DNA of 63,888 bases, the filler included, from Aduncisulcus paluster (taxonomy: Eukaryota): assembly GCA_024181965.1 (NCBI GenBank). It is 31 parts of 31 records of this genome, joined end to end, with 100 filler letters (N's around TTAATTAATTAA, not from the genome) between each part and the next. Parts side by side here need not be neighbours in the genome. Positions count along the whole stretch, not along the records: positions 57,727 to 58,812 come from BQXS01007737.1; 30 more parts are not named here. One strand, written 5' to 3'. Each line of letters opens with the position of its first letter. Position 1 is the first letter of the stretch. A model generated the notes under the pieces. It was not told where the DNA came from. It was given only the letters and a program-made list of their open reading frames with translations, and did not search any database. Shown here piece after piece: positions 28,783-62,769 of this stretch. The position numbers and the translations under genes were made by a program.

Positions 28783-30394
28783 ATGTCAAAATTCCTTCAA
28801 AACATATTTATATTGTATTTTATTATTGTTTTATGTTTTTGTGGCTTTGTTGTCCCGATGGATGATGATTTCATTGAGAATTGTACAATTTGTGATATTT
28901 CGAAACCCTCTCAATTTAGAATTGAATCAGAAGATAAAATTCAAATTAGTTTAACCTTCGACACCAATGAAAGTCCATTTTCTGACATTGATTATAGTCT
29001 AAGCAATTTGTTTGAAATTGAGAATGGCTTTTGTCCTATTGAGCAAGATGGTCATTCTATCAATGATACTGGAGATATCATGCAATATAATGACATTAAT
29101 AGTGATGATTCCGATACAGAAATTGATTTTATAAATATTCTAACCACTTTCACCTTGCCATCAAAGTCCAAAATAATCTGGATATGTTTTCTTGGATTGG
29201 GGAACACAATATTATTGGGAATTTTGTCAATGATTTTTGCAACTTTAGAAGCAATTTTTAAATTTATGATTGAATTATATTGGATCTCTATATTTATCTA
29301 TTGTGGATTTGTATTGTATTGGTTCCCTTTCATCCTGTCCATTTCAGATCTATATCGGGGATGGATATGTTTTGGATGTTTGATATCTGGTCTTCTCTTC
29401 ATTATAGCATTATGTTTGCTCGTTTTCTCCATAACAGATTCTATACGCAGCTCTCATGACTTTCCTGATTTTCCTAATATTAAATTTGAAGTTGAAGCGA
29501 TTGAAGTGGCGATTTCTTTCATCATTTGTGGGATATCCATTGGGCATGGTGTGTTTTATCATCCTATTTTCTATTGCTTTCCAATATTATTGGTACTGGA
29601 TATGTTTTCTTGGATTGGGGAACACAATATTATTGGGAATTTTGTCAATGATTTTTGCAACTTTAGAAGCAATTTTTAAATTTATGATTGAATTATATTG
29701 GATCTCTATATTTATCTATTGTGGATTTGTATTGTATTGGTTCCCTTTCATCCTGTCCATTTCAGATCTATATCGGGGATGGATATGTTTTGGATGTTTG
29801 ATATCTGGTCTTCTCTTCATTATAGCATTATGTTTGCTCGTTTTCTCCATAACAGATTCTATACGCAGCTCTCATGACTTTCCTGATTTTCCTAATATTA
29901 AATTTGAAGTTGAAGCGATTGAAGTGGCGATTTCTTTCATCATTTGTGGGATATCCATTGGGCATGGTGTGTTTTATCATCCTATTTTCTATTGCTTTCC
30001 AATATTATTGGTATTCTTAAACATATTCTTTTCTATGGCTCCCTATTCGCTTACTTTCAGACATTCTGAGAACACCATTGTTGTCAAACGTATTACAAGA
30101 ACTCCAATTTTATTTTCCATCGCTATCGTGTTCCCTTGCATTGTATTGTCTTTGACTGGATATTCAACACTTTCACTCCCTGCTCTTGTGATCGCACCCA
30201 TCTTTGTGGCCTTCTCGTTGATCAACCTCATAGGAAGCTTTAAGAAGCTAAGGATGGTGATCGTTATAAATTTCGTGGTTCTTTTGATCTTCTCGTTGAT
30301 TGTATATCTTGTACAACATTTCGTTTCTTCAATGGTATTGCTATGTTTCATCTTAATAGAGTTAGGATTATTCATTTCTGTATTAGGTAAATGA
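28783..30394 (+). CDS. Eukaryotic multi-pass membrane protein, split by an exact 418-bp tandem duplication
   Basis: Signal peptide, acidic ectodomain and many TM helices. Collapsing 29178-29595/29596-30013 restores one ORF. Confidence 0.6.
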
Positions 30395-33361: not shown

Positions 33362-33624
33362 ACTTGAACTGGCGTTTTATCAGTAAAAACATGGCGTTCA
33401 GCATCACTCTTAGAAGAAATTATGGCCTTAGAATCATCTTTTTCCTTTGAAATTTCATTATCGGACAATAAATCAGACTTTTCCTTTTCATCAGATTCTT
33501 TGGCATTTTCACCATGACTGGCATCACTATCATGGCGTTCAGTTGGTAAATCACCAACAATTTCAAATTCTTCATCATTTTCACCTGTATTGGCGTTTTT
33601 CAATTGGCTTCTTGTTTGTACCAT
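33362..33624 (-). CDS. Gag-like ORF start of retrotransposon family E
   Basis: MVQTRSQ start about 65 bp after the LTR end; identical copy at 60905-61084. Confidence 0.5.
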
Positions 33625-33689
33625 TTTAACAGAAAAATTTTGGCGTCAATTATACAATAAACTTTAGTTTGATAGGATTTTGATCAAAA

Positions 33690-33842
33690 TGTGGCCAAAC
33701 TAACTATAATGCGGTCCAATTTATTAATAAACAGATCTCGAGCGAACCAATCTATTTTTAGAATGTCCCTGAGAATGGTCACCACAATAGTATAATACTA
33801 TCACCTAGTAGGAAATGAAGATAAAAATCATTATTGACCACA
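33690..33842 (-). mobile_element. 5' LTR, family E (153 bp; alternative start gives 97 bp, 33690-33786)
   Basis: Sense TGTGGTCAA...TTGGCCACA termini, ATTCTCA, CTAAAAATAG, AATAAATTGG; second copy at 60687-60839. Confidence 0.65.
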
Positions 33843-33874
33843 ATATGGAAGTCAAAGTCAAGGAACAAATTAAC

Positions 33875-33964
33875 TGTAAGCTAAGCCAAATTTATTTAAA
33901 TAAACGGTTCTATAAATAGGACATCCCTGAGAATGTCTGTAGATAAGGATCAATGTCCGTAACA
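33875..33964 (-). mobile_element. Solo LTR, family A (90 bp) with 5-bp TSD
   Basis: TGT..ACA termini, identical to 36392-36481, flanked by TTAAC at 33870-33874 and 33965-33969. Confidence 0.85.
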
Positions 33965-33999
33965 TTAACTAAAAAAATAATTTGAAGAATATCTTCCAT

Positions 34000-34491
34000 T
34001 TATTCGAGCTCTTCAAATTCCTCTTCTTCATCGAGATCAACAGCTACAGAAGAGGTTTGCATTGTGGCTGACAAATCTGAGCCTTGAGAGATAAGAGTTA
34101 AGCTGGCTCCTGGACAGATACTTTGTGTAAAATTCAAGTAGTTTATAATCTGGCCATTCTGAAATAATTGCACCAAATTTTCCATCGTTCCGAATCTCTT
34201 CAAGAATAATATCCTTTCTATCTGCTTCAGGTAGTCTTCTGTTGCTCTTGACAGTCTTTTTTTCGTACTCATAGTGACACAGTGCATCCAGCAATCTGAC
34301 AGCAATCTTCTTTGAAAGAAACTCAATGGCGGCAGAGTAAACCTTTGAAGTGTCTAAAAATGCTTCAATATTGGTTGAAGTGACTGAGGTTTCTCCAGAA
34401 ATAATCGGGGGGAGAGAAGAAGAGATCATCTCTTTAAGCTCTGAGTATCGACGTTTCGTGGCTTTTAAAACCAACTTAACGTTTCTATTGA
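34000..34491 (-). CDS. Hypothetical, possibly Gag-like ORF (differs by a 1-bp indel from the copy at 60080-60616)
   Basis: Near-identical to 60080-60616 with A7 versus A6 near 34257-34263; LPP..EAFL..KVY weakly resembles the Gag-like motif. Confidence 0.4.
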
Positions 34492-36391: not shown

Positions 36392-36481
36392 TGTAAGCTA
36401 AGCCAAATTTATTTAAATAAACGGTTCTATAAATAGGACATCCCTGAGAATGTCTGTAGATAAGGATCAATGTCCGTAACA
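36392..36481 (-). mobile_element. 3' LTR, family A (90 bp) with polypurine tract
   Basis: Identical to 33875-33964; sense-strand AAGGAAGAAGGAGTAG (36482-36497) immediately precedes TGTTACGG. Confidence 0.85.
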
Positions 36482-36523: not shown

Positions 36524-36597
36524 TAGACGGACAGGGATTCGAACCCCGATCCACTAGGCAGTACACCGGCGTACTACCAATTGAGCTATCCTATGCC
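36524..36597 (-). ncRNA. Degenerate tRNA-like Pol III unit inside element A
   Basis: A-box TAGCTCAATTGG, B-box GGTTCGAATCC in a CGGGG/CCCTG T-stem, TTTT after it; acceptor and anticodon stems poorly paired. Confidence 0.7.
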
Positions 36598-37216
36598 TTT
36601 TCTATATTTTTCTATATTTTATATAAGCCTTTTTGCTCCTCTTGACCTTCCTCCTTACGGCACATGTATACCTCATTTTTCTACTATGAATTTATAAATA
36701 TGTATGTTGGAATATATACCATCATAATTGTATGTTATTTATGTGGATAACGTCTTCTAACTTCTGTGAGATTATCTCTCTTGATAAGACGGGTATTAAA
36801 TTTTTAATTTAATATTTAGCATACANNNNNNNNNNNNNNNNNNNNNNNNNNNNNNNNNNNNNNNNNNNNTTAATTAATTAANNNNNNNNNNNNNNNNNNN
36901 NNNNNNNNNNNNNNNNNNNNNNNNNGTTGCACCACTTGTAGTTTGAACTGTAGCTGGCATTTGTACAATAATATTATTGTTAGCTGTTCTACAGAATTTA
37001 TGCTTGGAGCAAATTTACTATTTTGAAATAAAATATAAATTCCCAGTTTTTGGATTTGAAACCAAACCGGAACCAAAAAATAAAACATTCTTAATCCTTT
37101 AATATAATAAGATGATAACTTCAAAATAATAAATAATAATAATAGTTTCTGTCAATAATAAATAAACAACATTGTAATACCATCATACTAACAATATCAG
37201 ACATTTGCCAAACAAC

Positions 37217-37425
37217 TGGTTATTTCCATGGAAGTAGAGATAGTCGTTCAACTGCAATAATTTCTTCTGACATAGTAAATACAAGGGAGTTGGTGTTGGC
37301 GGCGGCAGGGCACGGCCGGACCGGTGATGATCCGGAAATCAAAGAATATAATAAATTGTGTTACCGTTGGAATTGCCCATAGTATATAAACGTTGTTTTT
37401 ATTTAATGGAAGTCGAGAACAACCA
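37217..37425 (+). mobile_element. Possible 5' LTR, family G (start uncertain)
   Basis: TGGTTATT...AACAACCA termini and AATAAATTG; followed by the palindrome ATAAAATGCATTTTAT and an open hydrophilic ORF. Single copy only. Confidence 0.4.
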
Positions 37426-37429
37426 TAAA

Positions 37430-38061
37430 ATGCATTTTATCAGTTCTAAACATGATCAAAAATCCGAACTTGAAACCGCCAAGAATCCTATGTCCCTAAC
37501 CGTTATTGAAAGGAATGGAAAGTTGTTATTGGATGATGAGGCCCATGAGCCCAAGGATAAGGTCGCAGGAGATCTTGAATTAACTGCTAAGCCAGTTGTA
37601 CAAGTCCCAGACAAGGGCGAGGTCCCAGGTGATCTCTCAGGAGCTTCTCACGGAAGAATAGCAAGGAGAAATTGTAAGCCTTGTTCTTCTATTGGAGTTC
37701 CTGATGTGCTTCACACCATGCCCACCCGGAAGGGGAATGTGGCACCAGGTCACCCAGAAACTCCAAGCAGTTCTACTATGGTAATTAAGAGGCCAGGAAC
37801 CTCTCATGAATGGAGTGTGTGCTCGGTCACAAAGAAGATGTCACACAAGAAGAAGTCTCCAGAGAAGAGACGGAGCAAGGAAGCTGCAAGGGCTAAACCT
37901 TCTTCCCAAGAGAAGAAACATGATCTCGAAGACTCAAAGTCTGAGAAAACTGCCAAGCACAGTAAAGATGAGTCTCAAAGTGATTCATTTGAAATGGAGT
38001 CAGAGCCCAAGGGGTCTGAGAGAGTGAAGGAGGCTGAAACCCAGATGGCGGTAGATAAGCC
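37430..38061 (+). CDS. Hydrophilic ORF, possibly the low-complexity N-terminus of a Gag (partial)
   Basis: Open to the scaffold end, K/E/S-rich, directly after the LTR-like sequence and palindrome. Confidence 0.35.
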
Positions 38062-38487: not shown

Positions 38488-41400
38488 ATGGATCCAAAAT
38501 CAAGCTCAGAACGTAGCCAAGATATTGTATGTTTCTGAAAGTTTTTGAATTTATACATTTTATGATGTTTTATATAATTAATTTGAAAAATAATGCCCAT
38601 ATTGCTTTCATAACCCATTTTCTGTTTCGGGTGTTTATTATTGCTTCATTTCCACCAAAATCTCAATTAATTTATTAGATTCAAGAAGTTAAATCAGAGT
38701 TTATTCATGAAGGTGACGAATCTAGCTCTCCAATTCCTCGGGATTCCCCGAATGTTAAGAGTCCTGATATAACTGTTATTGAAGCCAAGAATAGGACCAA
38801 GGAAGAAGGTGATAATGGGTATGATCAGTGTTCTGCAGCACAAAAGATGATGAAAGGAGAGCGTAATTGGGAAGAATTTGGAGAGGTGGCTTATTGGGAA
38901 AGATTTATACCACAATTTACAAATATTTCCCTTCCTTTCTCCACATCTACTCCCATTAAAGGTGCTTATATTTGTATTGGAGGAGGAAAATATTTCTGTC
39001 CACCCTCACACCTTATCTTCTCTCTTACATCTTCAAAGGGGGAGAAAATGTTTAAAAAATATGAATTTCCTGAATTAGAAAATGATAGCTGGTTCTTTCT
39101 CCCTATTGATCTTTCTGATGTTATTCTGTGTGAGATTAAAGGGAAAGGGAGAAAGAAAGAGTCTTTTAGAATCTACTCCCTTGTTTTCATAAGTAGAGAA
39201 GAAACTCCTGAAGAAATCAAAGCTTGTGAAGCTAGAGAGAAACTATGGTCTGAAGCTCCAGTTGTGAAACCAGAGTTTCTTATGGAAGGATGGAAAGATT
39301 CTATTCCCATTCCACATGATGATCCAAAGCTTGTATATCCTTCATTCTCAATGGCTAAGGGAAAGAATGATGTGTTTCGTAAGGAATTTGAGGAGTATGA
39401 TCAGAGTTCAAGAGCACAAAAAATGTTAAGAGGGGAATGTGATGTTCACTTATCCCATCTTTCCATTCCTTTCCCATCACCTTGTCCAATGAAAGGTGCT
39501 TATATATGTGTGAATAAGAATGCTAGTTCTCCCTCTCTTCTCTTCACTTTCACTGATTGTGATGGTAAGAAGATATTCAAGAAGTATGAATTCACAAGAC
39601 CTAAACATTACTATGAATGGCACTTCCTTCCCATTGATATGGATAATGTTGTATTGTGTGAGATTGAAGGGAAAGGAAGTTGGTGGTGGAAGAATAGTCG
39701 ATACTTTGTCATCCTCTCCCTCGTATTCTTTCGAGAAGAAACCCCTGAAGAACGTTGTATTCGAGAATCCATTGAGGAACAATGGTCTAAAGCTGTATGT
39801 TCATTATATTTTATTGGTTTAATATTTTCACATTTCTTTGTTTTATTATTTGATACGATTCACGCTAATCTTGTTTTACAATATTATCTCTTGATTTGTT
39901 TCTAATACCATTATATATCTCTTTTTTCAAAAATGATATATAGCCCACCATTGAATCAGAGTTTGTGAATTCTGGCGATCCATCTGCCATCCCCATTCCA
40001 CGTGGTAATGCAGCCGTTAATAATCCTTCTTTTGAGATGGTCAAGGGAAAGAATGATTCGAAGAGTAAGGAATCTGAGGAGTATGACCAAAGTGAAAAAG
40101 CTCAAGAAATGTTGAAAGGTGAAGGAGAAGTGACATTATCCCATCTTTCCATTCCTTTCCCATCACCTAGTCCTATGAAAGGTGCTTATATCTGTGTGAA
40201 TAAGAATACTAGTTCACCCTCTCTTCTCTTCACTTTCACTGATTGTGATGGTAAGAAGACATGCAAGAAGTATGAATTGACAAGACCTGAACATTACTAT
40301 GAATGGCACTTCCTTCCTATTGATTTGTATAATGTTGTATTGTGTGAGATTGAAGGGAAAGGAAGGCGGGATAATAAGAATAGTCGATGTTTTGCAATCA
40401 ATTCTTTAGTTTTTCTTAAACAACGTATTTTATTGGGAACTGTTGAATATATATATAAGGGAGACTATTCATGCATTCCAATCCCTCGAGATGATCCAAC
40501 ATTTATCAGTCCAGAATTTTTTGCAATTAAAGCAAGAATTAATGGAAGAATGGAAATAGAATATGAAAGTTTATATTATCAGAGCGATTGTGCACAAGCG
40601 ATGATGATGATGAAAGGAGAGGGTGTTATTTTAGGTAATTCTGAGTTTTATTTTATTTCCATTCCTTTCAAATCATCAACACCTATAAAATGTGCCTATG
40701 TCTGTTTATCATCTCGTAAATCTCCATCTCTTACATTCACATTCACTTCTTCAAATGGAAGCAAAATATCATATTTATATAAATTTGATGCTAAATCCAC
40801 AGATCGTTGGTTTAAGCTTTCAATTGGTCTCTCTGATGTTATTTCATGTGATATCAAAGGAGATGAAGAAGTAAGGGAATATTTTGAAATTATTTCCCTT
40901 GCTTTTTATCGAGAAGGAACTCCTGATGAAGAGATTGCTCGAGAAAAACAAAGAATATATCTTAAAGAACTATGGTTTAAATCCCCACCTGTGATACCAA
41001 TGTCTGTAACCCAAGAAATTGTAGATTCCCTTGATGATACCTCAATCTTAAATCCTTCATTTTCAGATGTTACATGTAAGAATGATGTATGTTGTAAGGA
41101 ATCTGAGCGGTATGATCAGAGTTTGGAAGCACAAAAAATGTTAAAGGGGGAAGGTGACATAGTTTTATCCCATATTTCTATCCCTTTTCCATCACTTAAT
41201 TCAATTAAAGGTGCATATATTTCTGTTTCTAAATATTATCTCCCTGCTCTTCTCTTCACTTTCACTCTTTCGAATGGAAAGAAGATATCCAAGAGGTATG
41301 AATTCACAGAACCTGAACATGATTATAGATCTTTCTTTCTTCCTATTGATCTTCCAAAGGTTGTTTTATGTGAGATTCAGGGAAAAGGATCATGGGAATA

Positions 41401-42517
41401 TGAGAAGAGTCGATTTTTTGCAATAATCTCCCTTATTTTTATTAAAGGTGAAGATATTCCTCCCCTTTCTTCAGATTCCACAAAGCTTATCAAACATGAC
41501 TCTTTCACTCTCACTTCCTCTGCAACCATGACTCCTCAGTGCATCATTGGTCATGGTGGATTTGGTGAAGTTCTTCTTGTTGAAGTCGATGGTATTCCTA
41601 TTCCTTGTGTTCTGAAGAAAATGCTCCATGAAGCTGATGAAAGGGTTGTTAAAGAATGTCGAAAGGAGTTCAAGATGCAACGAAAGTTATTTAACAACCC
41701 CAAATGTTTCAATCGTATCCCTCGTCCTTTGTACATTCTTGACCTGCTTGATGCAGATTTACAGGGAGTATATGGATTCCTTATGGAGTTTTGTATTGGA
41801 GGCAGTGTGAATTCCTTTGCCAAGAGATGGTGTGTTGTTGAGAAGTCTACGAGTCAAGGGGAAGAAGGAGAGGAAGAAGATCTATCCGATTCCTTTTCGT
41901 CTTCAGAAGAAGATAGTGACGATCACAAACAGTTTGATCCCATGACACTGAACCCTGTTAAAGTGAGTGCTCTCTGTGTTGGCATGATTGAGTGTCTTGA
42001 TGATGTGTTTAGAGCAAAGAAGAGTCTTGTCCATCGAGATGTTAAACCAGACAACTTCCTTGTTCGTGTTGATCATGATTCAAATAAATGTACTATTGTT
42101 CTCTCTGATCTTGGAATGGTCCAAGTCTTAAATTCTCTTTCATCACGACTATCTTCAAGTGGGGTAACCAAAGTGTCTTCTCACTCCTCAAAGATTGCTG
42201 AAAAGGGGGCAAAACCTGAACCTCAACGTTCCATCTGTGGAACACTTGTGTATAATTCGTATGAAGCTCTTCGAGGGTATCAGACTCAAAAGAGTGATGC
42301 TTACTCTCTTGGAATGTCTATTCTTGCTCTGTTCATGGCAGATAACCCTTTCATAAATCTGCCTGGTTTAAGAGGAATTTGCAATCGATCGGACTTTGTT
42401 CTAGAACTATGTCGAATTCTCAAAGGTGATATGGGTCCAACATTAAAAGAATCACATCTCTTCAAATCCTTATTGTCAATTGAAAAGGGTGAATTCCGAT
42501 CTGTTCATGCATGTTGA
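38488..42517 (+). CDS. Spliced eukaryotic Ser/Thr-type protein kinase with five tandem ~150-aa repeats, 3' end truncated by an LTR
   Basis: Phase-0 GTATGT..AG introns at 38527-38678 and 39795-39943 join all exons in frame; repeats PIPRDxP..YDQS..SHLSIPF..KGAYIC..FLPIDL..CEI; kinase motifs GHGGFGEV, VLKK, HRDVKPDN, DLG, SDAYSLG. Confidence 0.85.
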
Positions 42518-42589
42518 AATATGATGTGATCTATTTTTAGACCACAAATCTGATGTTCATTTATTATAGTAAATTGCATACGCATTACA
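42512..42589 (+). mobile_element. 5' LTR, family F (78 bp)
   Basis: TGTTG...TTACA, CTATTTTTAG, AGTAAATTG; supplies the kinase stop codon; followed by a palindrome and a Gag-like ORF. Confidence 0.65.
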
Positions 42590-42606
42590 GTATTAATACT
42601 TTCGCG

Positions 42607-42923
42607 ATGGAAGGATCAATGGCTCTTCTACAACCTCCATTTCTTACTAAGTTCGATCGAAACTCATGGTTAAAGTTTCACCGAGATTACGCGATTTATG
42701 TCGCAAGAGGAGGCGATGCTGACTTTAGAACCTTAATTGATCCATTCGTATTACAGAGTCTTTATTTGACGACTGGATGTACACCGGATGAGACGCCTGA
42801 TAGTTTTAAAGCAAAGGTGACAAAAAAGTTTTCTGCTTCTAGCACTCAAGGATTTTACGACGAATTAAAGAAGCTGAAGCTGTATAAACTATCTCAATCC
42901 GCCCTTGTTACCTACACTGCTCG
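42607..42923 (+). CDS. Gag-like ORF of family F (partial)
   Basis: PPFLTKFDRNSWLKFHRDYAIYVARGG motif shared with the ORFs at 57904-58264 and 58453-58812. Confidence 0.6.
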
Positions 42924-43995: not shown

Positions 43996-46900
43996 TTAGC
44001 AAAAGAGACCATGAACTTCCGAAAAACTATCTTCCTCTTCCTCACCTTCTTCTTCCATCCTCTCCCTCCATGCATATTCGTCATATCCTTCGAATGGATA
44101 TGTCTTTGGATCAAACAACATTTCAACACCGCCACCTGTGCGTTCAATCAGGTCATACACGGATTGTCTCAAAGATCGTTCCTCATCAAATGGCATCCTA
44201 ACAAGCATGTGTTGGGGAGGGGTGTATTGGATGAGGGAAGAGTACGTGATTCGCTGTGGAGCTCCTGTACAAAGGCGATGATCTTCATCCGCGATTGCTA
44301 AATGTCGAGCGCTTTCATTTGCCTCTTCCTTTTCCTTGATATCTCCTAGTTCTCCTTGGAATTGGAGTGAATTCATTTCACATGATAAGTTACCACCTTT
44401 GACATCTTCGAAATTCATTTGATCTCCGGTCAACACATTGAAATATTCTATTTTCTCTCTTGAACAACATTGAATATTTAAAATAAACCCCATTCCAAAG
44501 CAAATATGACAAAAATAGCAATCCTTTGGTGTTGTTTCAAGATAAGGGAGAAGAAACAAAACTGGAATAGAATAGAAAATACCTAGAGAATAATCTTGAT
44601 AAATACAACGGGCAATATTTAAAAAATAAATGTAAAGATCATCATCAATACGAAAATCATAGAAAGTACTGGCTTCCATCATCCATGGTGACATGTCATA
44701 TTTGGGTGAAATATGCCGTATTAAAGATGAACTATACGATATCATCGAAATTAACTCAGCAAAATACTTATGTCCCCACAAATTACAATTAGTTTGGATC
44801 ACTTCCAACCACCCATCAAGAAGATCTTTTACCCTCTCAAATACTTCAATGGCTTGTGAAGGAATAAACACAAATTACGAAAAAATCTCAAAAAGGAAAA
44901 ATGAAAGTCCACATCAATCTTATCTCCAAAAAACTCTCTCTTNNNNNNNNNNNNNNNNNNNNTCATATTTGGGTGAAATATGCCGTATTAAAGATGAACT
45001 ATACGATATCATCGAAATTAACTCAGCAAAATACTTATGTCCCCACAAATTACAATTAGTTTGGATCACTTCCAACCACCCATCAAGAAGATCTTTTACC
45101 CTCTCAAATACTTCAATGGCTTGTGAAGGAATAAAACACAAATTACGAAAAAATCTCAAAAAGGAAAAATGAAAGTCCACATCAATCTTATCTCCAAAAA
45201 ACTCTCTCTTAACAACATCAAGAACAGGGTGGAAGAGAGGCCAAGCTTCAGAACAGAGGGCTTCATTCGGGATTTTATCTTGTGGATTGTCAAGAACACA
45301 TCCAAGAACGACCATTAAATATCCACAACATTCTGGATACAAGGATAAATATTCAGAAAACTTATTGATCAGCATGAGAAATGAACGTTTGACTATCAAT
45401 GATTGAGATCCAGCCATATAACGTAAAGATAAAGATATATCGAGTGGAATATTACCAAGTGATCTCTTCTCCTTTCTTCCTCTCTTAAGAATTCTTTGGA
45501 AAACTATAAATACATTGGCGGTAAAGGCTTTAGAAACCTTATTAGCCAACTTGGATGAGTAATATTTGCATATTTTACAATACTCTCCAGCAACATCTCC
45601 TTCCAACACTTCCTCACATCTTGATAAATGACCAATGAAAGTGTCAATGAGATCATTCAGATCAGGAATAGGGAGACAGATAGCATTTCCAGAAATATCA
45701 TGTCTAACAAACAACTGTAAACACTGAACACAAAGAACAATCTCTCTCTTGTGCTCTTCAATCTCACTCTTTGATTGGAATGCAAGGAAGACAGAAAGAA
45801 TATCATCTCGATGGTAGAGTTTGGAAGTGGATTCTGAGACAGGGGATTTGTTGAGAGTTTCAACTAATTCTGACCATTTTTTCAGAGAAGGATAACAATT
45901 ACTAAGATATCTTGTATAATCTTCACTCCAACCCCCATTCTTCTTGCACCATTCCATGTTGGTATCATATTTGGGAGATATGTGAGGAACAAGAGATGGA
46001 ACAGTGGAGAACATGGAAAATCGTCTGGACCAGTATTTGGTTCCCCAATTACCATCATCTTTCCCTTCTTCACTCTTCTTCTTTATCATCTCAAACCAAC
46101 CATCAAGAAGACCATCTTTAATACAATCATGCACTTCAACAGCTTGGGAAGGAATACAACTCAAATTAGCAAAGAACAATAAACAACGAATTACAGCATC
46201 ATCATCAAATGTAATACCTTTGGAAGCAGTGTCCTTAATCACATCCAAGACAGGATGGAAGACAAACCAGAGTTGTGAGGAACGATCTTTATGAGGTTTG
46301 GAATTATGGTTGTCAATTGTGATATTCTTCAAGATATTTATCCACAAGAAAAAGAACTTCTTGTCAGGATACTTCTTCATCCAAGGTAAGATGTGAGGGA
46401 GAAGAAGGGAAAAGAGGGAGTCCTTGGTGGGATCATCTTTTTTAATGGTTATAATGCTTGATTTATGAAGATATTTTGACAAAATAGAACAGATAATTAA
46501 AATGTCTTCCACAAGTTGATTTTCCAAGCGATAAATAATTCCTGATGGTAAGATCTTTGATAATAAAGGAATAATTACACCAAATACTTGAAATTGAAGA
46601 TATTCACATTGCATCATAGATGTACGAATGATTCGGAATACACTCATTGTGATAAGATTATTAATAGTTTCTTCATTCGTAATTTCTTCTCGGAAATAGC
46701 ACTCCACTCTGAGTATCTGAGTTAAAATTGGTGGAATAAACTGAGAAATTTGCTGTGAATCAAGCAAAATAGTATTATTATTTCCTTTAGAGGGACTAAA
46801 AGCCGTGTGCTTGATCAATAAGGAGATGCACTCAAAACATGTTATGAGAAGTTCTTCATTTGCTCTAATTATTGAATTATGGCAAGAATATGCATCAATT

Positions 46901-47428: not shown

Positions 47429-48865
47429 TTATTCTTTCCAGATTTCCACCAATTGCCGAAGATTCTTATTATCTTTGTATAAACAATGCCGTTCCCTCTC
47501 CAAACTTGATATTTTCTTAGCAAAAACCTTACAATCAGATGTGACTTCTGTTATTTTCCCCTTTAATTCGAGTCTCTGGCGATCCCATTCTTTTTCAATT
47601 TGTTCAATATATGCGAGCTTATCTTTCAATCTTTTGCTCAAAATCTCAATTTGTTCACCTTTTTCAATAGATTTTGCCTCAATTTCTTTTTTTTCATCTC
47701 TAAATCTTTCCGTGGCCAAGTCAAGTTTATGTTTGAGTTCATCACATATTCGATCACACTTTCTTTTCTCTTCTCCTACACCTTCAAGGGATATTTTTAA
47801 TTTATGCTCCAATTCTTCTATATTTCTTTCACATTTTCTTTTTTCTCCTTCAACTTCTTGAAGAGATATCTTCAGTTTGTCAACCATATCTTCCAACTTG
47901 CCTCTTTGGGAAGCTCTCTGTTCCAATTCATATTTAATCTCTGTTTCTTTCCTTTCCAGTAATGTAAGCGTACGTTCTGCAGCCATGGCTCTATCCTCAG
48001 CTCGCTGAGTGGATCTTAGCTGCTCTTGAAGTTGATGGCGCATTTCTTGAGATTCTCTCTGAAGCGACGAAACTCTCCTTTCCAACTCTTCTTTTGTACT
48101 CACCGAATCACGTTGGAGAACAGATACTCGCCTGAATAAATCATCCCGCTCGTCAGATATCTTTGAAACACGGAGTCTCCATTCACGACGCTGCTCTTCT
48201 TTCTCAGCATCAAGAGCCTCAAGTTCCTGAATTTTAGCTGTTAATTCGCCATGTTCTTTCTGTTTAAATTTGAGTAATTCTTTATATTTTTCTTCGAGAG
48301 CAGAGAATTTTCCTTTAAGTAGATCCTTCTCCTGCGAGTGTGAAGAAAGGGAATCTTCAAGAGATCTTCCTAATTCTGCAATTTTAGTGGAAGATTCACC
48401 TTCTATTCGCTTCAAATTAGCTTCTAATTCAAAATTACGAGTTCGATAACTTTCAAGTTGAGTTTCAAGTTGATGGAGAATTTGGGCATTTTCAACTTTA
48501 ACTTCTGCAACAGCATCAGCTTTAGCCTTTTCAATATCTGTGGATGTTGATAATTTGTCAATTAGTTTTTCTATTTCCTCACTTCGCGATTGAAGTTGGG
48601 ATTGAAGAGATTTTCTTTCTTGAGCAAATAGTCTCTCTAACTCAGCGTTCGCAAGTTTTGCTGCCTCTAGATCAGAAGTTAATTCAATATTTTTTTGTCT
48701 AATAGCTAAAAATTGGGTTTTAAGGACAGAAAAATTTTGCTTCATTATTTCTTGCTCTTTCGTCATTTGTGCCAATAAATCATCTCTTTCTTCATAGTTA
48801 GGGTGAGCAATCCCTGAAATATCGAGAGTTTCCATCCGGATTTTTATCAAAAGAGAGAATTTCAT
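47429..48865 (-). CDS. Long coiled-coil protein (possibly centriolar, CEP83-like)
   Basis: 478-aa heptad-rich E/K/L ORF; family assignment is a weak impression only. Confidence 0.6.
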   Translation of the reverse strand: MKFSLLIKIRMETLDISGIAHPNYEERDDLLAQMTKEQEIMKQNFSVLKTQFLAIRQKNIELTSDLEAAKLANAELERLFAQERKSLQSQLQSRSEEIEKLIDKLSTSTDIEKAKADAVAEVKVENAQILHQLETQLESYRTRNFELEANLKRIEGESSTKIAELGRSLEDSLSSHSQEKDLLKGKFSALEEKYKELLKFKQKEHGELTAKIQELEALDAEKEEQRREWRLRVSKISDERDDLFRRVSVLQRDSVSTKEELERRVSSLQRESQEMRHQLQEQLRSTQRAEDRAMAAERTLTLLERKETEIKYELEQRASQRGKLEDMVDKLKISLQEVEGEKRKCERNIEELEHKLKISLEGVGEEKRKCDRICDELKHKLDLATERFRDEKKEIEAKSIEKGEQIEILSKRLKDKLAYIEQIEKEWDRQRLELKGKITEVTSDCKVFAKKISSLERERHCLYKDNKNLRQLVEIWKE

Positions 48866-49607
48866 TCGATGTCGGGAAATCTTTCGTCATATTCCATATT
48901 AGCAACCCAAATTGAAAAGATTCAACAAAAATAACTTTATTTAAAACATTCAATTAAATATAACTATTGTAGATTACATTATACAGCCTTTCCATTTTTN
49001 NNNNNNNNNNNNNNNNNNNTTTTTGTCTAATAGCTAAAAATTGGGTTTTAAGGACAGAAAAATTTTGCTTCATTATTTCTTGCTCTTTCGTCATTTGTGC
49101 CAATAAATCATCTCTTTCTTCATAGTTAGGGTGAGCAATCCCTGAAATATCGAGAGTTTCCATCCGGATTTTTATCAAAAGAGAGAATTTCATTCGATGT
49201 CGGGAAATCTTTCGTCATATTCCATATTAGCAACCCAAATTGAAAAGATTCAACAAAAATAACTTTATTTAAAACATTCAATTAAATATAACTATTGTAG
49301 ATTACATTATACAGCCTTTCCATTTTTCTCGGGCGAATAATCTCTAATATATAGATAATATATTTTAAACCATAATGTGTTATAAAAAAATTTAGAATTA
49401 AATTTCTTGTAATGTTGCTAGATTAGCTGATAATAGTCTTCGGTATCAATATTTGAGATGATAAGGTTGAAGAATATTAAATAGGTGAAATAGTAATACG
49501 AATACTAGTATATTTCGATTATCCCTGTTTTCGCAGACATTATCGTTTTCAACAGAGATAAACAGGTAATTTGCCTGTTTTCCTGACAAAAGTAATATAA
49601 ATCATTT

Positions 49608-54003: not shown

Positions 54004-56004
54004 TTAGAAATAAAGATCTCTGACCCCCTTAATTTTGATCATGTCAAGCTTCTTCATGAACGACTTTTTGCGAGATTCAGACGGGATATTCTCCATTTCC
54101 TTTCCAATCAGCTCCCATCCGATCTTCTGTGTTTCTGGGGAAGCATAATCAATGAGATACTCAGCCAACGTGAGCAAGGCATTTGGCTGGCAATAGTTCC
54201 CAATGGCCCCACTCTTAGCAAAGTTCATGAACACCTCTCCAGTCCTGCCACTTCTGTAGCATCCAGTGCAGAAGGAAGGAATGAACCCTTTCTTCATCAA
54301 GTCACGGACGACCTCATCAAGAGAACGGTGGTCAGAGAGCTCGAACTGTCCCTCGTCCTCTGTGGTCCCAACTTTTGTCTGCACCTCCTTCTCTTCCTCG
54401 CCCTTGCTGTAAGCACCAGGGTCAGTGCGGGAGGCAGCACTCAGCTGACTCACTCCAAGTTGAAGGAGTTCATCACGCATGGCTTCAGACTACACGGGTG
54501 GAGAGGATAATCCCCGTATATGGGAGAGACACACGCAGCACAGCAACGATCTTCTTGAACTGCTTGTCATTGACAGGGTAAGGCACAACATGGGACAATG
54601 GGGCATCCTTTGCAGGCTGGATACGAGGCACGGAGACAGTGTGAGGCCCTGTTCCCCAGTTCTTGTCCAGGTGAGCACCATGCATGATCATGGCAAGGGT
54701 GTCCCATTTGTAATCGTAGAGCCCATACAACACACCCAGACCCACATCGTCAATGCCTCCCTTGTTGGAACGATCCATGTTGGTGATACGGAAGTCGTAG
54801 TCAGCTTTAGGCCCTGACGAATGTACCTTGGCAAAGGTGGGACGATGGTATGACTCCTGGAAGAGAGCAACCGTTCCAATGCTATCGGTGGCCTTGAGAC
54901 GCTTCATATCACTCACGGAGAGAGTAGGAACCTCAACATTAATCCGACGGATCGAACTACCCTTCTCATCACGGACAGCATTGGTGGCAACCATTGCATC
55001 AACAAAGGAGTCGAAGGGATACTTGGGACTCTCACCACAAAGCATTAACGTACGTTTGTGACCTTGTTTCACAATAGCTCGGGCATCAGCAGCAACCTGA
55101 CTACTATCAAGAACAGTCCTTGGGGAATCTTTGTTGTGACAGCTGAATCCACAATATAAACAACCGTTAATGCACTCATTTGCAGTGTATAAAGGTGCAA
55201 ACATGACAACACGCTTTCCATAGATTTTCTCTTTGATGAATTTGGCAGTCTTGTAGAGTTCTTCCATCAATTCTGGATGTTCTTCTTCATCAATGTTCAA
55301 AAGAAGAGCCGTTTCCTCGATTGACAGACCTTGAATGAACTCAGATCCAAATTGACACCCTACAGGAATCTTGAATTGAGCAGCATCCTTGGCCTTCTTA
55401 AGAATACGTTTCACGGTATCTACATCGGTGGAAGCAAGCTCTGTACTAACGAGGGCCCTACTAATTCTCNNNNNNNNNNNNNNNNNNNNGGTGCAAACAT
55501 GACAACACGCTTTCCATAGATTTTCTCTTTGATGAATTTGGCAGTCTTGTAGAGTTCTTCCATCAATTCTGGATGTTCTTCTTCATCAATGTTCAAAAGA
55601 AGAGCCGTTTCCTCGATTGACAGACCTTGAATGAACTCAGATCCAAATTGACACCCTACAGGAATCTTGAATTGAGCAGCATCCTTGGCCTTCTTAAGAA
55701 TACGTTTCACGGTATCTACATCGGTGGAAGCAAGCTCTGTACTAACGAGGGCCCTACTAATTCTCTCTTCGTCAATAATATCCTTGGGATGAACGGTTTC
55801 TGGGTGAGGATCTTTTTCTATACTCCAGAAAGTTCCAGGATGTTTCCAAGCACGTTTCAATGGTCGTTTCATTCCCTCAATTGTAACTGGACCAGGAATA
55901 GTGATTCCTGTGGGAGTACTTTGAGAGAAAGAATGGGAAACTCCAGAAACAAGTGATTCTGGAATTATTTCTGATATAGAAGGTTTTAATATGGATGAAA
56001 GCAT
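54004..56004 (-). CDS. hydG: [FeFe]-hydrogenase maturase HydG with N-terminal extension (dup artefact at the N gap; 1-bp frameshift near 54492)
   Basis: VMFAPLY..CINGCLYC radical-SAM motif, FQESYH, GPHTVSVPRI, and C-terminal PSFCTGCYR-x20-C (CX2CX22C) diagnostic of HydG; ends GVRDLYF. Confidence 0.92.
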
Positions 56005-57626: not shown

Positions 57627-57803
57627 NNNNNNNNNNNNNNNNNNNNNNNNNNNNNNNNNNNNNNNNNNNNTTAATTAATTAANNNNNNNNNNNNNNNNNN
57701 NNNNNNNNNNNNNNNNNNNNNNNNNNCCGTGAATACCCGACGGGGAAGATAAAGTGAGTTCTTTTAATTAAGCAAACTTTATTTCTTTGTACTGTAAGAA
57801 GGG

Positions 57804-57903
57804 TGTTACGGATAATTATTTTAATGTTTCTCACATATCTATTTTTAGATCCAACTGTTCGTTCTATTTTTATTTAATAAATTGTACCAATCATAGTACA
57901 ACA
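57804..57903 (+). mobile_element. 3' LTR, family D (97-100 bp) with polypurine tract
   Basis: AAGAAGGG then TGTTACGGA..TTTCTCA..CTATTTTTAG..AATAAATTGTACC..ACA; cuts the Gag-like ORF on the opposite strand. Confidence 0.7.
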
Positions 57904-58264
57904 CCTTGGCTTTGCCGCCGTCGGAACATGCATCGAATTCAGCGAGAAAACCTTCACAGTATGTCATCATAGATTCAACAGTGCAAGCAGAGACTTTGGG
58001 GAGACTTCTGATGGCTCTCTTCAACTGAGGAACAGTAGTACCGAAAGACTTAGTAACCTCCTTGATAAAACGTTTCAGAGCACCAGGAACAGTAAGATCA
58101 GTCATAGATACACGCTTTTTAAGAACACGAAGACAAGTTGGAGAAATCAATTTGTTGAGTGACTGAGTACCACCTTCAGCTTCATAAACCATGAATTCTT
58201 TGATGAAACATCTCCAATCAGACTTGAGAGGCTTGGATAAGTAAGGAATTTTTGAGAACTGCAT
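57904..58264 (-). CDS. Gag-like ORF, interrupted by LTR D
   Basis: IPYLSKPLKSDWRCFIKEFMVYEAEGG motif. Confidence 0.6.
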
Positions 58265-58349
58265 AATCAATTATAACGAGCAAAAATAGTCAGTATTAAT
58301 AAGACAATAATTTTGTTAGTACAAAATAATATTATTTTGTGATCAGCAC

Positions 58350-58437
58350 TGTGAGTTTCTCATGGTCTAATTATAGAACCATGCCCCGTCTTCATTTCTA
58401 ATAAATTGTACCACTGTTGTTTCTATAGATTTTGACA
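58350..58437 (+). mobile_element. 5' LTR, family B (88 bp)
   Basis: TGTGAG...TTTGACA; exact reverse complement of 61553-61640 and 61952-62039 with different flanks. Confidence 0.85.
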
Positions 58438-58452
58438 ATATATATATTTAGC

Positions 58453-58812
58453 ATGAAGAACAGTAAGATCGTGTCCATTGGTGTTAAAAAACTCAAAGAA
58501 AGGGAATTACCAGCACCATACTTAGAATCTCTCGATTCCGACACTTGGGAACGTTTTCTTGCGGAATATGACCACTACCGTTCCCTTGGAGGGAAAAGAT
58601 TCTGGCCGACACTTTGCTCTGCCGCAGCTTTGAGGATAATTGCGATTATTGCTAAGGTCACTGACTTTACTATCTCAAAAAACCGGATCAGAGCCAGAAA
58701 GAGAATTACTGCGATATTTCGCGGAAGTTCAAAACAATCCATCTCGGATCAGCTGAAAGGAACAAGAATGCGACCTGAACTCACTATGAAGGCGATATCC
58801 GAATATATCGGC
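58453..58812 (+). CDS. Gag-like ORF of family B (partial)
   Basis: PAPYLESLDSDTWERFLAEYDHYRSLGG motif; starts 15 bp after the LTR. Confidence 0.6.
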
Positions 58813-59858: not shown

Positions 59859-60079
59859 CTTCCCTTTTTCCTCCCTCCTTTTTCAGAAGTTTCCTTTGTT
59901 TCCAACATTTTCTAAAACGTTAAATATCTTGGGNNNNNNNNNNNNNNNNNNNNNNNNNNNNNNNNNNNNNNNNNNNNTTAATTAATTAANNNNNNNNNNN
60001 NNNNNNNNNNNNNNNNNNNNNNNNNNNNNNNNNAACATAAAGAATTTTATTATTATGTGATTTATGTTTTGCTTACAAA

Positions 60080-60616
60080 ATGGAATCAAACCCTCCCATT
60101 TCAGGTTTGGACAGCTTCAAGACTATCAATAGAAACGTTAAGTTGGTTTTAAAAGCCACGAAACGTCGATACTCAGAGCTTAAAGAGATGATCTCTTCTT
60201 CTCTCCCCCCGATTATTTCTGGAGAAACCTCAGTCACTTCAACCAATATTGAAGCATTTTTAGACACTTCAAAGGTTTACTCTGCCGCCATTGAGTTTCT
60301 TTCAAAGAAGATTGCTGTCAGATTGCTGGATGCACTGTGTCACTATGAGTACGAAAAAAGACTGTCAAGAGCAACAGAAGACTACCTGAAGCAGATAGAA
60401 AGGATATTATTCTTGAAGAGATTCGGAACGATGGAAAATTTGGTGCAATTATTTCAGAATGGCCAGATTATAAACTACTTGAATTTTACACAAAGTATCT
60501 GTCCAGGAGCCAGCTTAACTCTTATCTCTCAAGGCTCAGATTTGTCAGCCACAATGCAAACCTCTTCTGTAGCTGTTGATCTCGATGAAGAAGAGGAATT
60601 TGAAGAGCTCGAATAA
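60080..60616 (+). CDS. Hypothetical ORF, second copy of 34000-34491
   Basis: Reverse-complement near-identity with scaffold 33362-34491. Confidence 0.45.
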   Translation: MESNPPISGLDSFKTINRNVKLVLKATKRRYSELKEMISSSLPPIISGETSVTSTNIEAFLDTSKVYSAAIEFLSKKIAVRLLDALCHYEYEKRLSRATEDYLKQIERILFLKRFGTMENLVQLFQNGQIINYLNFTQSICPGASLTLISQGSDLSATMQTSSVAVDLDEEEEFEELE

Positions 60617-60686
60617 ATGGAAGATATTCTTCAAATTATTTGGCTTAGCTTACAGTTAATTTGTTCCTTGACTTTGACTTCCATAT

Positions 60687-60839
60687 TGTGGTCAATAATG
60701 ATTTTTATCTTCATTTCCTACTAGGTGATAGTATTATACTATTGTGGTGACCATTCTCAGGGACATTCTAAAAATAGATTGGTTCGCTCGAGATCTGTTT
60801 ATTAATAAATTGGACCGCATTATAGTTAGTTTGGCCACA
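60687..60839 (+). mobile_element. 5' LTR, family E (second copy), followed by a palindrome and the MVQTRSQ ORF
   Basis: Same sequence as 33690-33842. Confidence 0.65.
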
Positions 60840-61184
60840 TTTTGATCAAAATCCTATCAAACTAAAGTTTATTGTATAATTGACGCCAAAATTTTTCTGT
60901 TAAAATGGTACAAACAAGAAGCCAATTGAAAAACGCCAATACAGGTGAAAATGATGAAGAATTTGAAATTGTTGGTGATTTACCAACTGAACGCCATGAT
61001 AGTGATGCCAGTCATGGTGAAAATGCCAAAGAATCTGATGAAAAGGAAAAGTCTGATTTATTGTCCGATAATGAAATTTCAAAGNNNNNNNNNNNNNNNN
61101 NNNNNNNNNNNNNNNNNNNNNNNNNNNNTTAATTAATTAANNNNNNNNNNNNNNNNNNNNNNNNNNNNNNNNNNNNNNNNNNNN

Positions 61185-61551
61185 CAAAAGGTTTTCCAAT
61201 GTCAAAACGCTTCTTAACATTCTTTTTAACCTCTTCTTGGTTCTCCCTCGCAGATTCCTGGATTTCCAGAATCCTTTCCGTGATATCATCGACGTAAGAT
61301 TTCAAAAACGATGGAGTCAGATCGGAAATGTGCTTGTCGAAACAGAAAGGAACAGCCTCATTAGCAGTCAAATCCTTCCCAAAAATCATTTCGTAAGGTC
61401 TTTTTTTCGTGGTTCTATGAATTCTCATATTCAAATAAAACCTTATTACCGGTATTAATTCCGATAAAACGTACTCCTTCTTGGGTATTGTCGACTTCAT
61501 CTTTAGCAAAGACCTCTTAATAACTCCATTCAAACGTTCAACAATCCCCAT
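61185..61551 (-). CDS. Retroviral-type DDE integrase, C-terminal part, interrupted by LTR B
   Basis: GIVERLNGVIK (catalytic Glu helix), LNMRIHRTTKKRPYEMIFG, then ..ARENQ..KKRFD..F as in Ty3/Gypsy integrases. Confidence 0.8.
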
Positions 61552-61552
61552 C

Positions 61553-61640
61553 TGTCAAAATCTATAGAAACAACAGTGGTACAATTTATTAGAAATGAAG
61601 ACGGGGCATGGTTCTATAATTAGACCATGAGAAACTCACA
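61553..61640 (-). mobile_element. 3' LTR, family B with polypurine tract
   Basis: Sense GGGGGGAAC (61641-61649) precedes TGTGAG. Confidence 0.85.
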
Positions 61641-61951
61641 GTTCCCCCCAGAACCAAGACTCGTCTCAGTTACAAATAAATAAAAAATAAAAATTAAAAA
61701 AAAAAAAAAAAAAAAGAAAAAGAACATGGAACGGGAGAGAAGACCTCAGCCTTAAGAACTCCCAACCATACGTAGGGGTGACCGCAGAACACCTAGAGCA
61801 GACCTCAGCCCGCTGATCAACCTCAGCTGATCATATTCCCAACAACACGCAGAANNNNNNNNNNNNNNNNNNNNAGTCCCGAAATATTCTGGACCTTATC
61901 ATAATACTTCGGTATGTAATCATGAAAATAATTAAAAAAACCAAGAATACT

Positions 61952-62039
61952 TGTCAAAATCTATAGAAACAACAGTGGTACAATTTATTAGAAATGAAGA
62001 CGGGGCATGGTTCTATAATTAGACCATGAGAAACTCACA
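61952..62039 (-). mobile_element. 3' LTR, family B (another insertion flank)
   Basis: Identity with 61553-61854 starts exactly at the LTR end; the flanks differ. Confidence 0.85.
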
Positions 62040-62265
62040 GTTCCCCCCAGAACCAAGACTCGTCTCAGTTACAAATAAATAAAAAATAAAAATTAAAAAA
62101 AAAAAAAAAAAAAAAGAAAAAGAACATGGAACGGGAGAGAAGACCTCAGCCTTAAGAACTCCCAACCATACGTAGGGGTGACCGCAGAACACCTAGAGCA
62201 GACCTCAGCCCGCTGATCAACCTCAGCTGATCATATTCCCAACAACACGCAGAAGGGGATGATAT

Positions 62266-62341
62266 AAAATGGCGGAGGTGGGGTTCGAACCCACGTCTTC
62301 CACACCGCAGCATGAAGGACTAACGTCTCGGCCAAATATTG
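62266..62341 (-). ncRNA. Degenerate tRNA-like Pol III unit inside element B
   Basis: A-box-like TGGCCGAGACG, perfect T-arm GTGGG-TTCGAAC-CCCAC, 3' CTCCGCCA then TTTT; 5' acceptor strand does not pair. Confidence 0.7.
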
Positions 62342-62769
62342 TTCAAATAATTTTTATGTTGAACGTATCAATGAAAAATACTTCTTGTTCCTTCTTCTTA
62401 TTTAAAATTAAGAAGTGAAATAAAAGAACAACATATAATTAACATAGATAGAGTGTATTTTCCCCACTTCTACCCCTCTCAGAGCGAAGGCTCGATGGAA
62501 GGAAAGGGAAAAATACGATCTGAAATAGAAAGATATTTCAATGAAAAAGATGTAATATCTTTAAAGTATAACGCTTATCACTAGTGTAATTGATAATTGT
62601 TAACCGAATCGCGACTCGGTTCGTGTGTGAAAAAAGCAAAAAGTCGAAAAATTTGAATTAGCAAAATTANNNNNNNNNNNNNNNNNNNNNNNNNNNNNNN
62701 NNNNNNNNNNNNNTTAATTAATTAANNNNNNNNNNNNNNNNNNNNNNNNNNNNNNNNNNNNNNNNNNNN

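Follow-up and report, generated by a model that had tools for sequence, protein, structure and literature searches.

How does a retrotransposon begin reverse transcription if the sequence next to its 5′ long terminal repeat (LTR) is complementary to itself rather than to a transfer RNA (tRNA)? The question is raised by a short contig of the protist Aduncisulcus paluster, at positions 57,727 to 58,812 of the window (the whole stretch of DNA analysed here, 63,888 bases), in which two LTR retrotransposons each carry a perfect palindrome in the place of a tRNA primer-binding site (PBS). Ty3/Gypsy and Ty1/Copia elements normally prime minus-strand synthesis at a PBS complementary to a host tRNA. 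To our knowledge, few solutions to the priming of reverse transcription exist, namely the 3′ end of a tRNA, a half-tRNA, and the self-priming of Tf1. The mode of priming is among the steps that define retroelement biology. In fungal Copia elements, a palindrome in primer position has, as far as we know, been noted once before, and it was left unexplained there.

We propose that, in a large clade of protist and environmental elements, the tRNA-complementary PBS has, judging from sequence, been replaced by a perfect palindrome of 10–20 nt whose first base(s) are also the last of the 5′ LTR. The palindrome is fixed in position, conserved among relatives, covarying in its arms, and specific to the 5′ LTR, and neither a tRNA-type nor a Tf1-type site accompanies it.

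Palindromes at the LTR Ends of the Window

A first-pass annotation of the window had listed six perfect palindromes at junctions between 5′ LTRs and open reading frames (ORFs). All six are perfect reverse-complement palindromes of 12–20 nt, at the coordinates given below. The eukaryotic part of the window (28126-62669, with counts taken over its 33,464 non-N bases) contains only 19 palindromes of at least 12 nt (0.57 per kb), and six of these are the ones claimed. The window palindromes are 83–100% A+T. The annotation had also held that a palindrome overlaps the LTR end at every junction; this stands for four elements, called B, the minus-strand element, E, and F, and fails for a fifth, G.

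Some LTR ends could be fixed independently of the palindromes, either through other LTR copies or through contigs of the public sequencing runs X1 and X2, whose points of departure from the window (“loose ends”) mark element borders. In B, the minus-strand element, and a further family, K, the ends set in this way coincide with the first base(s) of the palindrome. Only the final 88 nt of the B LTR (58350..58437, +) are present, and they comprise a TATA-like box, AATAAATTG, and the end ...TTTTGACA. This piece is a 100% match to 61553-61642 and 61951-62041, with loose ends at 58348/58350 and 58437; the two minus-strand LTR copies from which these matches come (61553-61854 and 61952-62254) follow 58348-58437/58438 and then diverge, and contigs of both X1 and X2 depart at 58437. 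The 12-nt palindrome of B, AATATATATATT (58437..58448, +), starts with the last A of the LTR and so stands in PBS position. The gag ATG follows 5 nt after it and opens the Gag N-terminal ORF (58453..58812, +), which matches a profile of the N-terminal Gag domain (gag-N) with E 4e-33 and runs off the contig. One X1 contig (record 8, 58410-58764) spans the LTR end, the palindrome, and the gag start.

In the same contig, the 88 nt of the B LTR abut the last 12 nt of the 5′ LTR of the minus-strand element (58338..58349, −; ...GTGCTGATCACA), the rest of which lies outside the contig. An X1 contig that continues past 58349 reads, on the minus strand, ...AAATTGTCCTGCTCATT and then GTGCTGATCACA (...AAATTG...GATCACA), which is a typical LTR end for this genome. 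Therefore, the 20-nt palindrome ACAAAATAATATTATTTTGT (58321..58340, −) begins with the ACA of the LTR, its first three bases being the last three of the repeat. The Gag N-terminal ORF of this element (57905..58264, −; gag-N profile E 1.9e-32, and alignment with B and F) is truncated by the insertion of a K-family LTR. That LTR, recognised by its sequence (TGTTACGG...TAGTACA; 97 nt; 57804..57900, +), is a 3′ or solo copy; a purine run precedes it, and X1 and X2 contigs depart at its borders, 57797 and 57900/57901. In the window, its end is followed by non-palindromic target DNA, and it serves as a control; in an X2 contig, the K LTR end runs on into AAATAATTATTTT..., which together with the last A of the LTR makes up a perfect palindrome of 14 nt.

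In E and F, the LTR ends were chosen by eye from a shared end pattern (AATAAA...CACA) instead of from a second copy; the pattern consists of a TATA-like box, AATAAATTG, some 20–35 nt, and then CACA. The putative F LTR is a single copy of 65 nt (TGTGATC...CATTACA; 42525..42589, +; bounds inferred), and the same end pattern and palindrome are found in the metagenome loci L005, L050, L021, L062, and L018, described below. Its 12-nt palindrome, AGTATTAATACT (42589..42600, +), ends 6 nt short of the gag ATG at position 42607, from which the F Gag N-terminal ORF (42607..42923, +; gag-N profile E 5.9e-34) runs off the contig. The putative LTR of E (60662..60839, +; bounds likewise inferred) reads TGTTCC...GGCCACA, contains a TATA-like box and AATAAATTG, and has its sole other copy in the reverse-complement contig 33362-34491. 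Its 14-nt palindrome, ATTTTGATCAAAAT (60839..60852, +), is the same as that at 33677-33690 on the other strand. The annotation had listed these as two cases. The palindrome is indeed perfect, but E counts once because both cases are the same sequence in two reverse-complement contigs. No gag domain was detectable within the contig in the ORF downstream of E.

The palindrome assigned to G (37425-37440) does not fit: it is found within the ORF, 19 nt from its start, and some 46 nt beyond the likely LTR end. Another palindrome of the same contig, which the annotation had not listed, does fit: the 16-nt ACAATAATATTATTGT (36965..36980, +) comes after ...TTTGTACA and directly after ...GGCATTTGTACA at the contig start, and it shares its core with that of the metagenome locus L056.

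LTR ends without an internal region behave differently. No palindrome of at least 8 nt touches the end in the two B-family copies (61553..61854, −, the end of which abuts an integrase fragment, and 61952..62254, −, which lies 12 nt downstream of a tRNA-like fragment), in K, or in the copy of another family, H, at 33875; nor does one touch the end of the H copy at 36392, which may be a 5′ LTR. H is an LTR family of about 90 nt (TGTTACGG...GCTTACA), present in two contigs at 33875-33964 and 36392-36481 (−) with 99% identity. It is whole in contig 33362-34491, of which the reverse-complement twin, 60034-61084, keeps only the last 14–17 nt of it; an imperfect inverted repeat (AGAAT..ATTCT) follows the copy at 36392.

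Conservation in Environmental Relatives

Metagenome relatives were collected by a scan with the polyprotein alignment, and the best 80 of 427 confirmed loci were analysed. The gag-N domain is present in 17 of the 80, and 15 of these 17 have a perfect palindrome of 10–16 nt in the 120 nt before the gag ATG, always starting at CA (for example ...CCAC|AGTGTCGACACT, ...TCAC|AGTGACGTCACT, and ...CCAC|AGTTAGCTAACT). The two exceptions are L009, whose contig is cut at the 5′ end, and L004, with a palindrome of only 8 nt. The F palindrome of the window, AGTATTAATACT, recurs identically in six loci, including the five named above. When all loci are considered, 50 of 80 have a palindrome of at least 10 nt within 150 nt upstream of the ATG of the long ORF; most of the others have one after the LTR downstream of pol, because their contigs either are circular permutations or lack the 5′ end. 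A non-coding palindrome of at least 10 nt in CA context occurs in 66 of the 80 loci, at a density of 1.21 per kb in non-coding vs 0.28 per kb in coding sequence. Among the 14 loci without one, 13 miss the junction or have a non-CA palindrome, and in L007, the palindrome lies under the ORF mask.

The loci have a GC content of 0.35–0.64, and their palindromes follow the composition of the host. Since the layout is the same over this whole range, it is not an effect of AT-richness. In all, 36 distinct palindromes of 10–20 nt were seen, 12 nt being the most frequent length, and the outer bases are AGT...ACT in 12 of them; five different palindromes occur within the A. paluster genome alone. The earlier observation that the sequences differ while symmetry and position are kept is thus borne out on a much larger set. 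Nor is the feature a radiation confined to this protist; it is found throughout a large environmental clade.

The first-pass annotation had called for 5′ and 3′ LTR ends to be scored against each other, and this comparison is the most telling. Both LTR ends are defined in six elements (L027, L046, L048, L052, L056, and L069). All six 5′ LTR ends carry a perfect palindrome of 12–18 nt that overlaps the last 1–4 bases of the LTR. At the six 3′ ends, where the LTR sequence is the same, no palindrome of at least 10 nt is present; L027 has an 8-mer. Since palindromes of at least 12 nt occur in these loci at 0.52 per kb, a contrast of 6/6 to 0/6 is not due to chance. These elements look young and intact: the two LTRs show no difference in L048 (100% identity over 294 nt) or L052 (100% over 91 nt) and are 98.6% identical in L046, polyprotein ORFs are intact (1291–1809 aa), ORF lengths in these elements span 1291–2216 aa, and purine tracts precede the 3′ LTRs. 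The identical LTRs and intact ORFs imply that the missing tRNA site is not the result of decay. In L046, the LTRs measure 73 nt (3895-3967 and 8362-8434), with a 4-bp target duplication, CGGC, and the purine tract GAAGAGAGGGAG. LTRs of 73 nt are, as far as we know, among the shortest known, and they fall under the usual cut-offs of LTR finders.

Several other features of these loci were noted. Many of the metagenome contigs (L003, L005, L008, L011, L012, L050, and others) have identical ends of 55–145 nt and are circular in the assembly graph, as expected if two LTRs collapse in assembly, or if 1-LTR circles or tandem elements were sequenced. Further perfect palindromes are present in L069, L072, L073, and L079 (e.g., L069:358-367), and at L046:3901-3912, L002:1158-1167, and L001:142-177; palindromes of 10–36 nt also occur inside LTRs, near their 5′ ends. 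One family has a conserved TCTAGCTAGA 18 nt past its first palindrome.

Identity of the Elements

That the elements are LTR retrotransposons, with ORFs linked to reverse transcriptase (RT) and integrase, was borne out for B, F, and the minus-strand element by way of their homologues. The window itself contains gag-N pieces and one integrase piece only, and in a Pfam search with its ORFs (B, the minus-strand element, F, E, G, the integrase piece, and others), nine of ten matched no family, with a kinase ORF as the only hit. The ORFs of B, the minus-strand element, and F are homologous, with 26% identity to B and 16 invariant columns, and a profile made from these three matched 90 proteins. All seven long homologues that were scanned (1283–1387 aa) carry the gag-N domain at the N-terminus. 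According to Pfam, a zinc knuckle follows it in five of the seven and an aspartic protease in four; RT, RNase H, and integrase are present in all seven and a chromodomain in five, in the order Gag–protease–RT–RNaseH–integrase. The names under which such homologues are filed, “Tf2-6 polyprotein” and similar, are automatic labels. Members of the same or related protein clusters are assigned to A. paluster by their sources. The integrase piece of the window (61186..61551, −) is of the Ty3/gypsy type and matches positions 1071-1180 of the polyprotein profile over 61210-61548 (E 4.7e-13). By their predicted domain order, the elements are Ty3/gypsy chromovirus-type LTR retrotransposons with a single Gag–protease–RT–RNaseH–integrase(–chromodomain) ORF.

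An AlphaFold model of the gag-N domain has a mean predicted local distance difference test (pLDDT) score of 81 and a confident core. Foldseek found no match to this model in the PDB at E ≤ 0.001, and the rows for murine leukaemia virus (MLV) capsid and Arc, at E 6–9, are no evidence of relationship. The LTRs are short, about 65–330 nt, with TG...CA ends and a polypurine tract; L046, L052, L001, and L002 have TGT starts and purine tracts. In the window, K runs from TGT to ACA after AAGAAGGG, and B is represented by three LTR copies.

Other Candidate Priming Sites and RNA Folding

The reported absence of a TGG-type PBS was confirmed, as TGG occurs within 5 nt of the LTR end at none of 11 defined or inferred 5′ junctions. 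ARAGORN detected no tRNA, also when introns were allowed, either in the window as a whole or in the two of its contigs that contain tRNA-like pieces, and Rfam gave only sub-threshold matches in its search (15.3 bits for tRNA, where the gathering score is 29, and 12–13 bits for transfer-messenger RNA). Two tRNA-like fragments, at 62267-62345 (−) and 36529-36591 (−), consist of a T arm, GGGTTCGAACCC or GGGGTTCGAATCCC, and a 3′ acceptor strand. An LTR on the same strand follows 12 nt after the first and about 40 nt after the second, and this proximity suggests tRNA-gene targeting by the elements.

A Tf1-type arrangement was also sought. The longest complement to the site within the LTR is 5–7 nt in all nine elements, and 84–299 of 300 shuffles did equally well. 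A second box, allowing up to two mismatches in the next 110 nt, is present in none of 18 elements.

The computed energy of the homodimer duplex formed by the palindromes is −7.4 to −19.3 kcal/mol, vs 0 to −3.8 kcal/mol for a hairpin of the palindrome alone. In the minimum-energy folds of E, L002, L003, L046, L050, and L007, the palindrome forms a 4-bp mini-hairpin on top of a stem between the unique 5′ region (U5) of the LTR and the leader; in E, this stem measures 8–9 bp. Retroviral primer sites are likewise bracketed by a U5–leader stem. Compared with shuffled sequences, the local folds have z values of −2.4 to +1.4, and in only one of 13 were fewer than 10 of 200 shuffles as stable.

A Proposed Priming Mechanism and Its Alternatives

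By the rules of retroviral reverse transcription, the inner boundary of the LTR is set by the 3′ end of the minus-strand primer. Therefore, a conserved element that starts exactly at this boundary sits in the position of the primer site. The arms of the palindrome covary across 36 sequences, five of them in one genome, and pairing must thus be under selection; for the same reason, one host RNA or protein could not serve every family. The occurrence of five palindromes in one genome, together with the identity of AGTATTAATACT in elements found elsewhere, also argues against a single host primer or protein. PBS position, preserved symmetry, and free sequence across families and hosts make non-canonical priming the leading reading.

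It is tempting to propose that priming is tRNA-independent and proceeds by RNA–RNA self-pairing of two co-packaged genomic RNAs, followed by a cut at the palindrome; on the sequence evidence, we give this proposal a probability of about one half. The palindrome would then act as RNA, in trans, as the primer. The palindromes of the two genomic RNAs would pair into a duplex of 10–20 bp, and cleavage of the RNase H type at the palindrome’s 3′ edge would leave a 3′-OH paired up to the final A of the LTR. Minus-strand strong-stop DNA could be extended from this cut end with no host tRNA. The final A is always inside the palindrome, which would fit the retention of one primer nucleotide. HIV-1 retains one primer nucleotide, and the cutting of an RNA duplex by RNase H in Tf1 is a precedent for the proposed cut. 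For Tf1, a proposed cleavage site has been described (PMC4600332).

Several points weigh against this proposal. Both the start of priming at the palindrome and the cut in the RNA are steps that we infer. A palindromic site would allow plus-strand strong-stop DNA to anneal to itself, a cost under the standard scheme. Duplexes of the AT-only 12-mers of B and K are weak (−7 to −8 kcal/mol). If the H copy at 36392 is a 5′ LTR, it is one that lacks a perfect palindrome. E and G have no link to RT or integrase within their contigs, and their ORFs are of low complexity and run off the contigs. The absence of a tRNA-type PBS was judged by TGG adjacency. Finally, dimerisation alone could account for the conservation, and the 5′ RNA palindromes of retroviruses and Ty1 are dimerisation signals that stand beside a PBS (PMC4974528).

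This last point leads to the alternative that the palindrome is a dimerisation or packaging signal only, comparable to the retroviral dimerisation initiation site (DIS) or the palindromes (PAL) of Ty1, while another primer is used. Palindromes dimerise retroviral RNAs and have been proposed to do so in Ty1 (PMC4974528; PMC5874298), preserved symmetry with free sequence suits a pairing signal, and by our calculations, pairing between two molecules is much more favourable than folding into a hairpin. We nevertheless consider it unlikely that dimerisation is the whole function, for in every defined case the start of the palindrome coincides exactly with the final base(s) of the LTR, while known DIS palindromes sit in hairpin loops besides a PBS (PMC5445492). 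In many elements, moreover, the gag ATG comes 3–16 nt later, so that there is no room for another primer site, and no TGG is adjacent. A second alternative places the palindrome at the tip of an intramolecular U5–leader hairpin that RT or integrase would recognise, in the style of GalEa or Tf1. The authors of the GalEa study propose a hairpin at the same place (PMC5445492), and the six folds with a mini-hairpin on a U5–leader stem are in keeping with it. We regard this as improbable: the folds are no more stable than those of shuffled sequences, the palindrome alone gains at most −3.8 kcal/mol as a hairpin, no GalEa-type second copy lies downstream (0/18), and a hairpin does not need a loopless perfect palindrome.

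Could the site act as DNA instead? Perfect palindromes are typical of sites for dimeric DNA-binding proteins, whether in transcription, integration, or silencing, and the AGT...ACT outer bases shared by 12 of 36 palindromes and the nearby ATG in many elements might point to a protein site or to a gag initiator or translation element. Such a role appears highly improbable, given half-sites that vary freely within one genome and palindromes that are identical across hosts; the distance to the ATG ranges from 3 to more than 100 nt, while that to the LTR end is fixed at 0, and transcription starting here would give an RNA without R-U5 (the terminal repeat and U5). There remains chance, either as AT-rich low complexity at arbitrary LTR ends or as decayed elements that have lost an old PBS. 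The A+T content of the window palindromes, the ends of E and F chosen by eye, and the fragmentary contigs of about 1 kb would allow for it. We find it hardly credible, since palindromes of at least 12 nt are rare in both window and loci (0.57 and 0.52 per kb), GC-rich palindromes hold the same place in GC-rich relatives, the 5′ and 3′ ends differ as 6/6 to 0/6, LTR pairs are identical, and ORFs are intact.

If priming does occur by mutual pairing of two genomic RNAs, a broader proposition follows, which we put forward tentatively and regard as possible though doubtful: the mutual priming of paired RNAs would be a third mode of RT initiation, ancestral to this chromovirus clade, whose hosts include distant protists (Metamonada, Jakobida, and many uncultured ones), and convergent in the fungal GalEa Copia elements.

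Composition of the Window

The window consists of 31 contigs of about 1–15 kb, chained by N44-TTAATTAATTAA-N44 linkers. Its first 28 kb are mostly bacterial contigs (GC 0.60–0.68, or AT-rich with bacterial-looking ORFs), which are contaminants from a culture grown with bacteria; judged by eye, the bacterial-looking ORFs include an efflux pump, a chemotaxis receptor, RNA polymerase beta, and similar proteins. Exact or near-exact direct duplications flank 20-N gaps at 29178-29895, 44696-45210, 48692-49319, 55194-55765, and 61553-62254. Most of these look like scaffolding artefacts and are a source of false ORF repeats; the pair at 61553/61952 (98–99% identical) may be two real LTR copies. The summed depth of X1 and X2 contigs is higher over LTR parts than over gag, this depth not being a copy number. 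In a protein kinase gene at 39303-41446 (Pfam Pkinase, E 1.4e-12), the kinase domain is preceded by three internal repeats of some 200–300 nt that share 75–85% identity. The announcement of the A. paluster genome (PMC9933649) does not discuss transposons.

Comparison with Known Systems

In a literature search that did not extend to subscription journals, Repbase Reports, and supplements, we met no earlier description of a palindromic primer site in Gypsy elements or chromoviruses; the supplements of PMC5445492 and PMC6317226 list primer sites element by element and may hold further cases. The Troyka/Unicorn elements, to which the first-pass annotation had ascribed a similar combination of a palindrome and a tRNA-like sequence, do not provide a parallel: a term search of the text of the Troyka paper (PMC12440569) gives no occurrence of palindrom-, primer, tRNA, or Unicorn. 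Troyka resembles the present elements in being a non-standard Gypsy-like LTR element, but it has CG...CG termini and 3-bp duplications, whereas the elements described here end in TG...CA, and the duplication seen in L046 is of 4 bp.

Tf1, Tf2, Tj1, and sushi are, like the present elements, chromoviruses without a tRNA PBS (PMC4600332, PMC6317226, PMC5006619). In the Tf1 group, a site of about 11 nt pairs with the element’s own RNA, and a cut by RNase H has been proposed (PMC4600332, PMC6317226, PMC5006619). That site, however, pairs with the first bases of the mRNA within the LTR, while the site described here is self-complementary, with a complement of at most 7 nt in the LTR. Skipper, from the chromoviruses of dictyostelid protists, has likewise lost the TGG site, and unconventional priming is thought likely (PMC5006619). 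Some of its relatives target tRNA genes (PMC5006619), and two LTRs of the window lie 12–40 nt from tRNA-like fragments. The Skipper site differs in being a degenerate polypyrimidine stretch and not a palindrome (PMC5006619). As in the retroviral DIS and the Ty1 PAL, we are dealing with short palindromes in the 5′ part of genomic RNA that would pair two genomes; those signals, by contrast, occur in addition to a tRNA PBS, and their position is not tied to the border of the LTR (PMC4974528; PMC5874298).

The practical consequences concern annotation. LTR finders that demand a tRNA-complementary site will miss or mis-score such elements, and LTRs of 65–100 nt are under the common length cut-offs of these programs. 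The occurrence of the palindrome throughout the clade, the covariation of its arms, and its restriction to the 5′ LTR make it a general and testable element.

The closest precedent, in the accessible literature, is not Troyka but the “Conserved Hairpin Site” of the fungal GalEa Copia elements (PMC5445492), a study also cited in a paper on terminal-repeat retrotransposons in miniature (TRIM) of bivalves (PMC6934838). Donnart et al. (2017, PMC5445492) found no tRNA PBS in GalEa; the box that follows the 5′ LTR, CHSeq1, is palindromic together with the final A of the LTR, and the boxes read ACTGATCAGT or ACTAATTAGT. These authors report no Tf1-type complement and no model that fits (PMC5445492). 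The present elements share with GalEa the palindrome after the 5′ LTR that includes the final A (AGT...ACT and others here), the TGT...CA borders of the LTR, the single ORF, and the lack of a tRNA PBS. GalEa belongs to Ty1/copia, whereas the domain order here is that of Gypsy, with integrase after RT and a chromodomain. GalEa also has a second, inversely complementary box of 9 nt, CHSeq2, 12–41 bp downstream (PMC5445492), and none of 18 elements has one here. Two sequences cover 85% of the GalEa families, in contrast to 36 palindromes of 10–20 nt in our set. What appears to be new, therefore, is that a GalEa-like palindromic site, free of any second box, characterises an entire clade of Gypsy chromoviruses whose protist hosts are unrelated.

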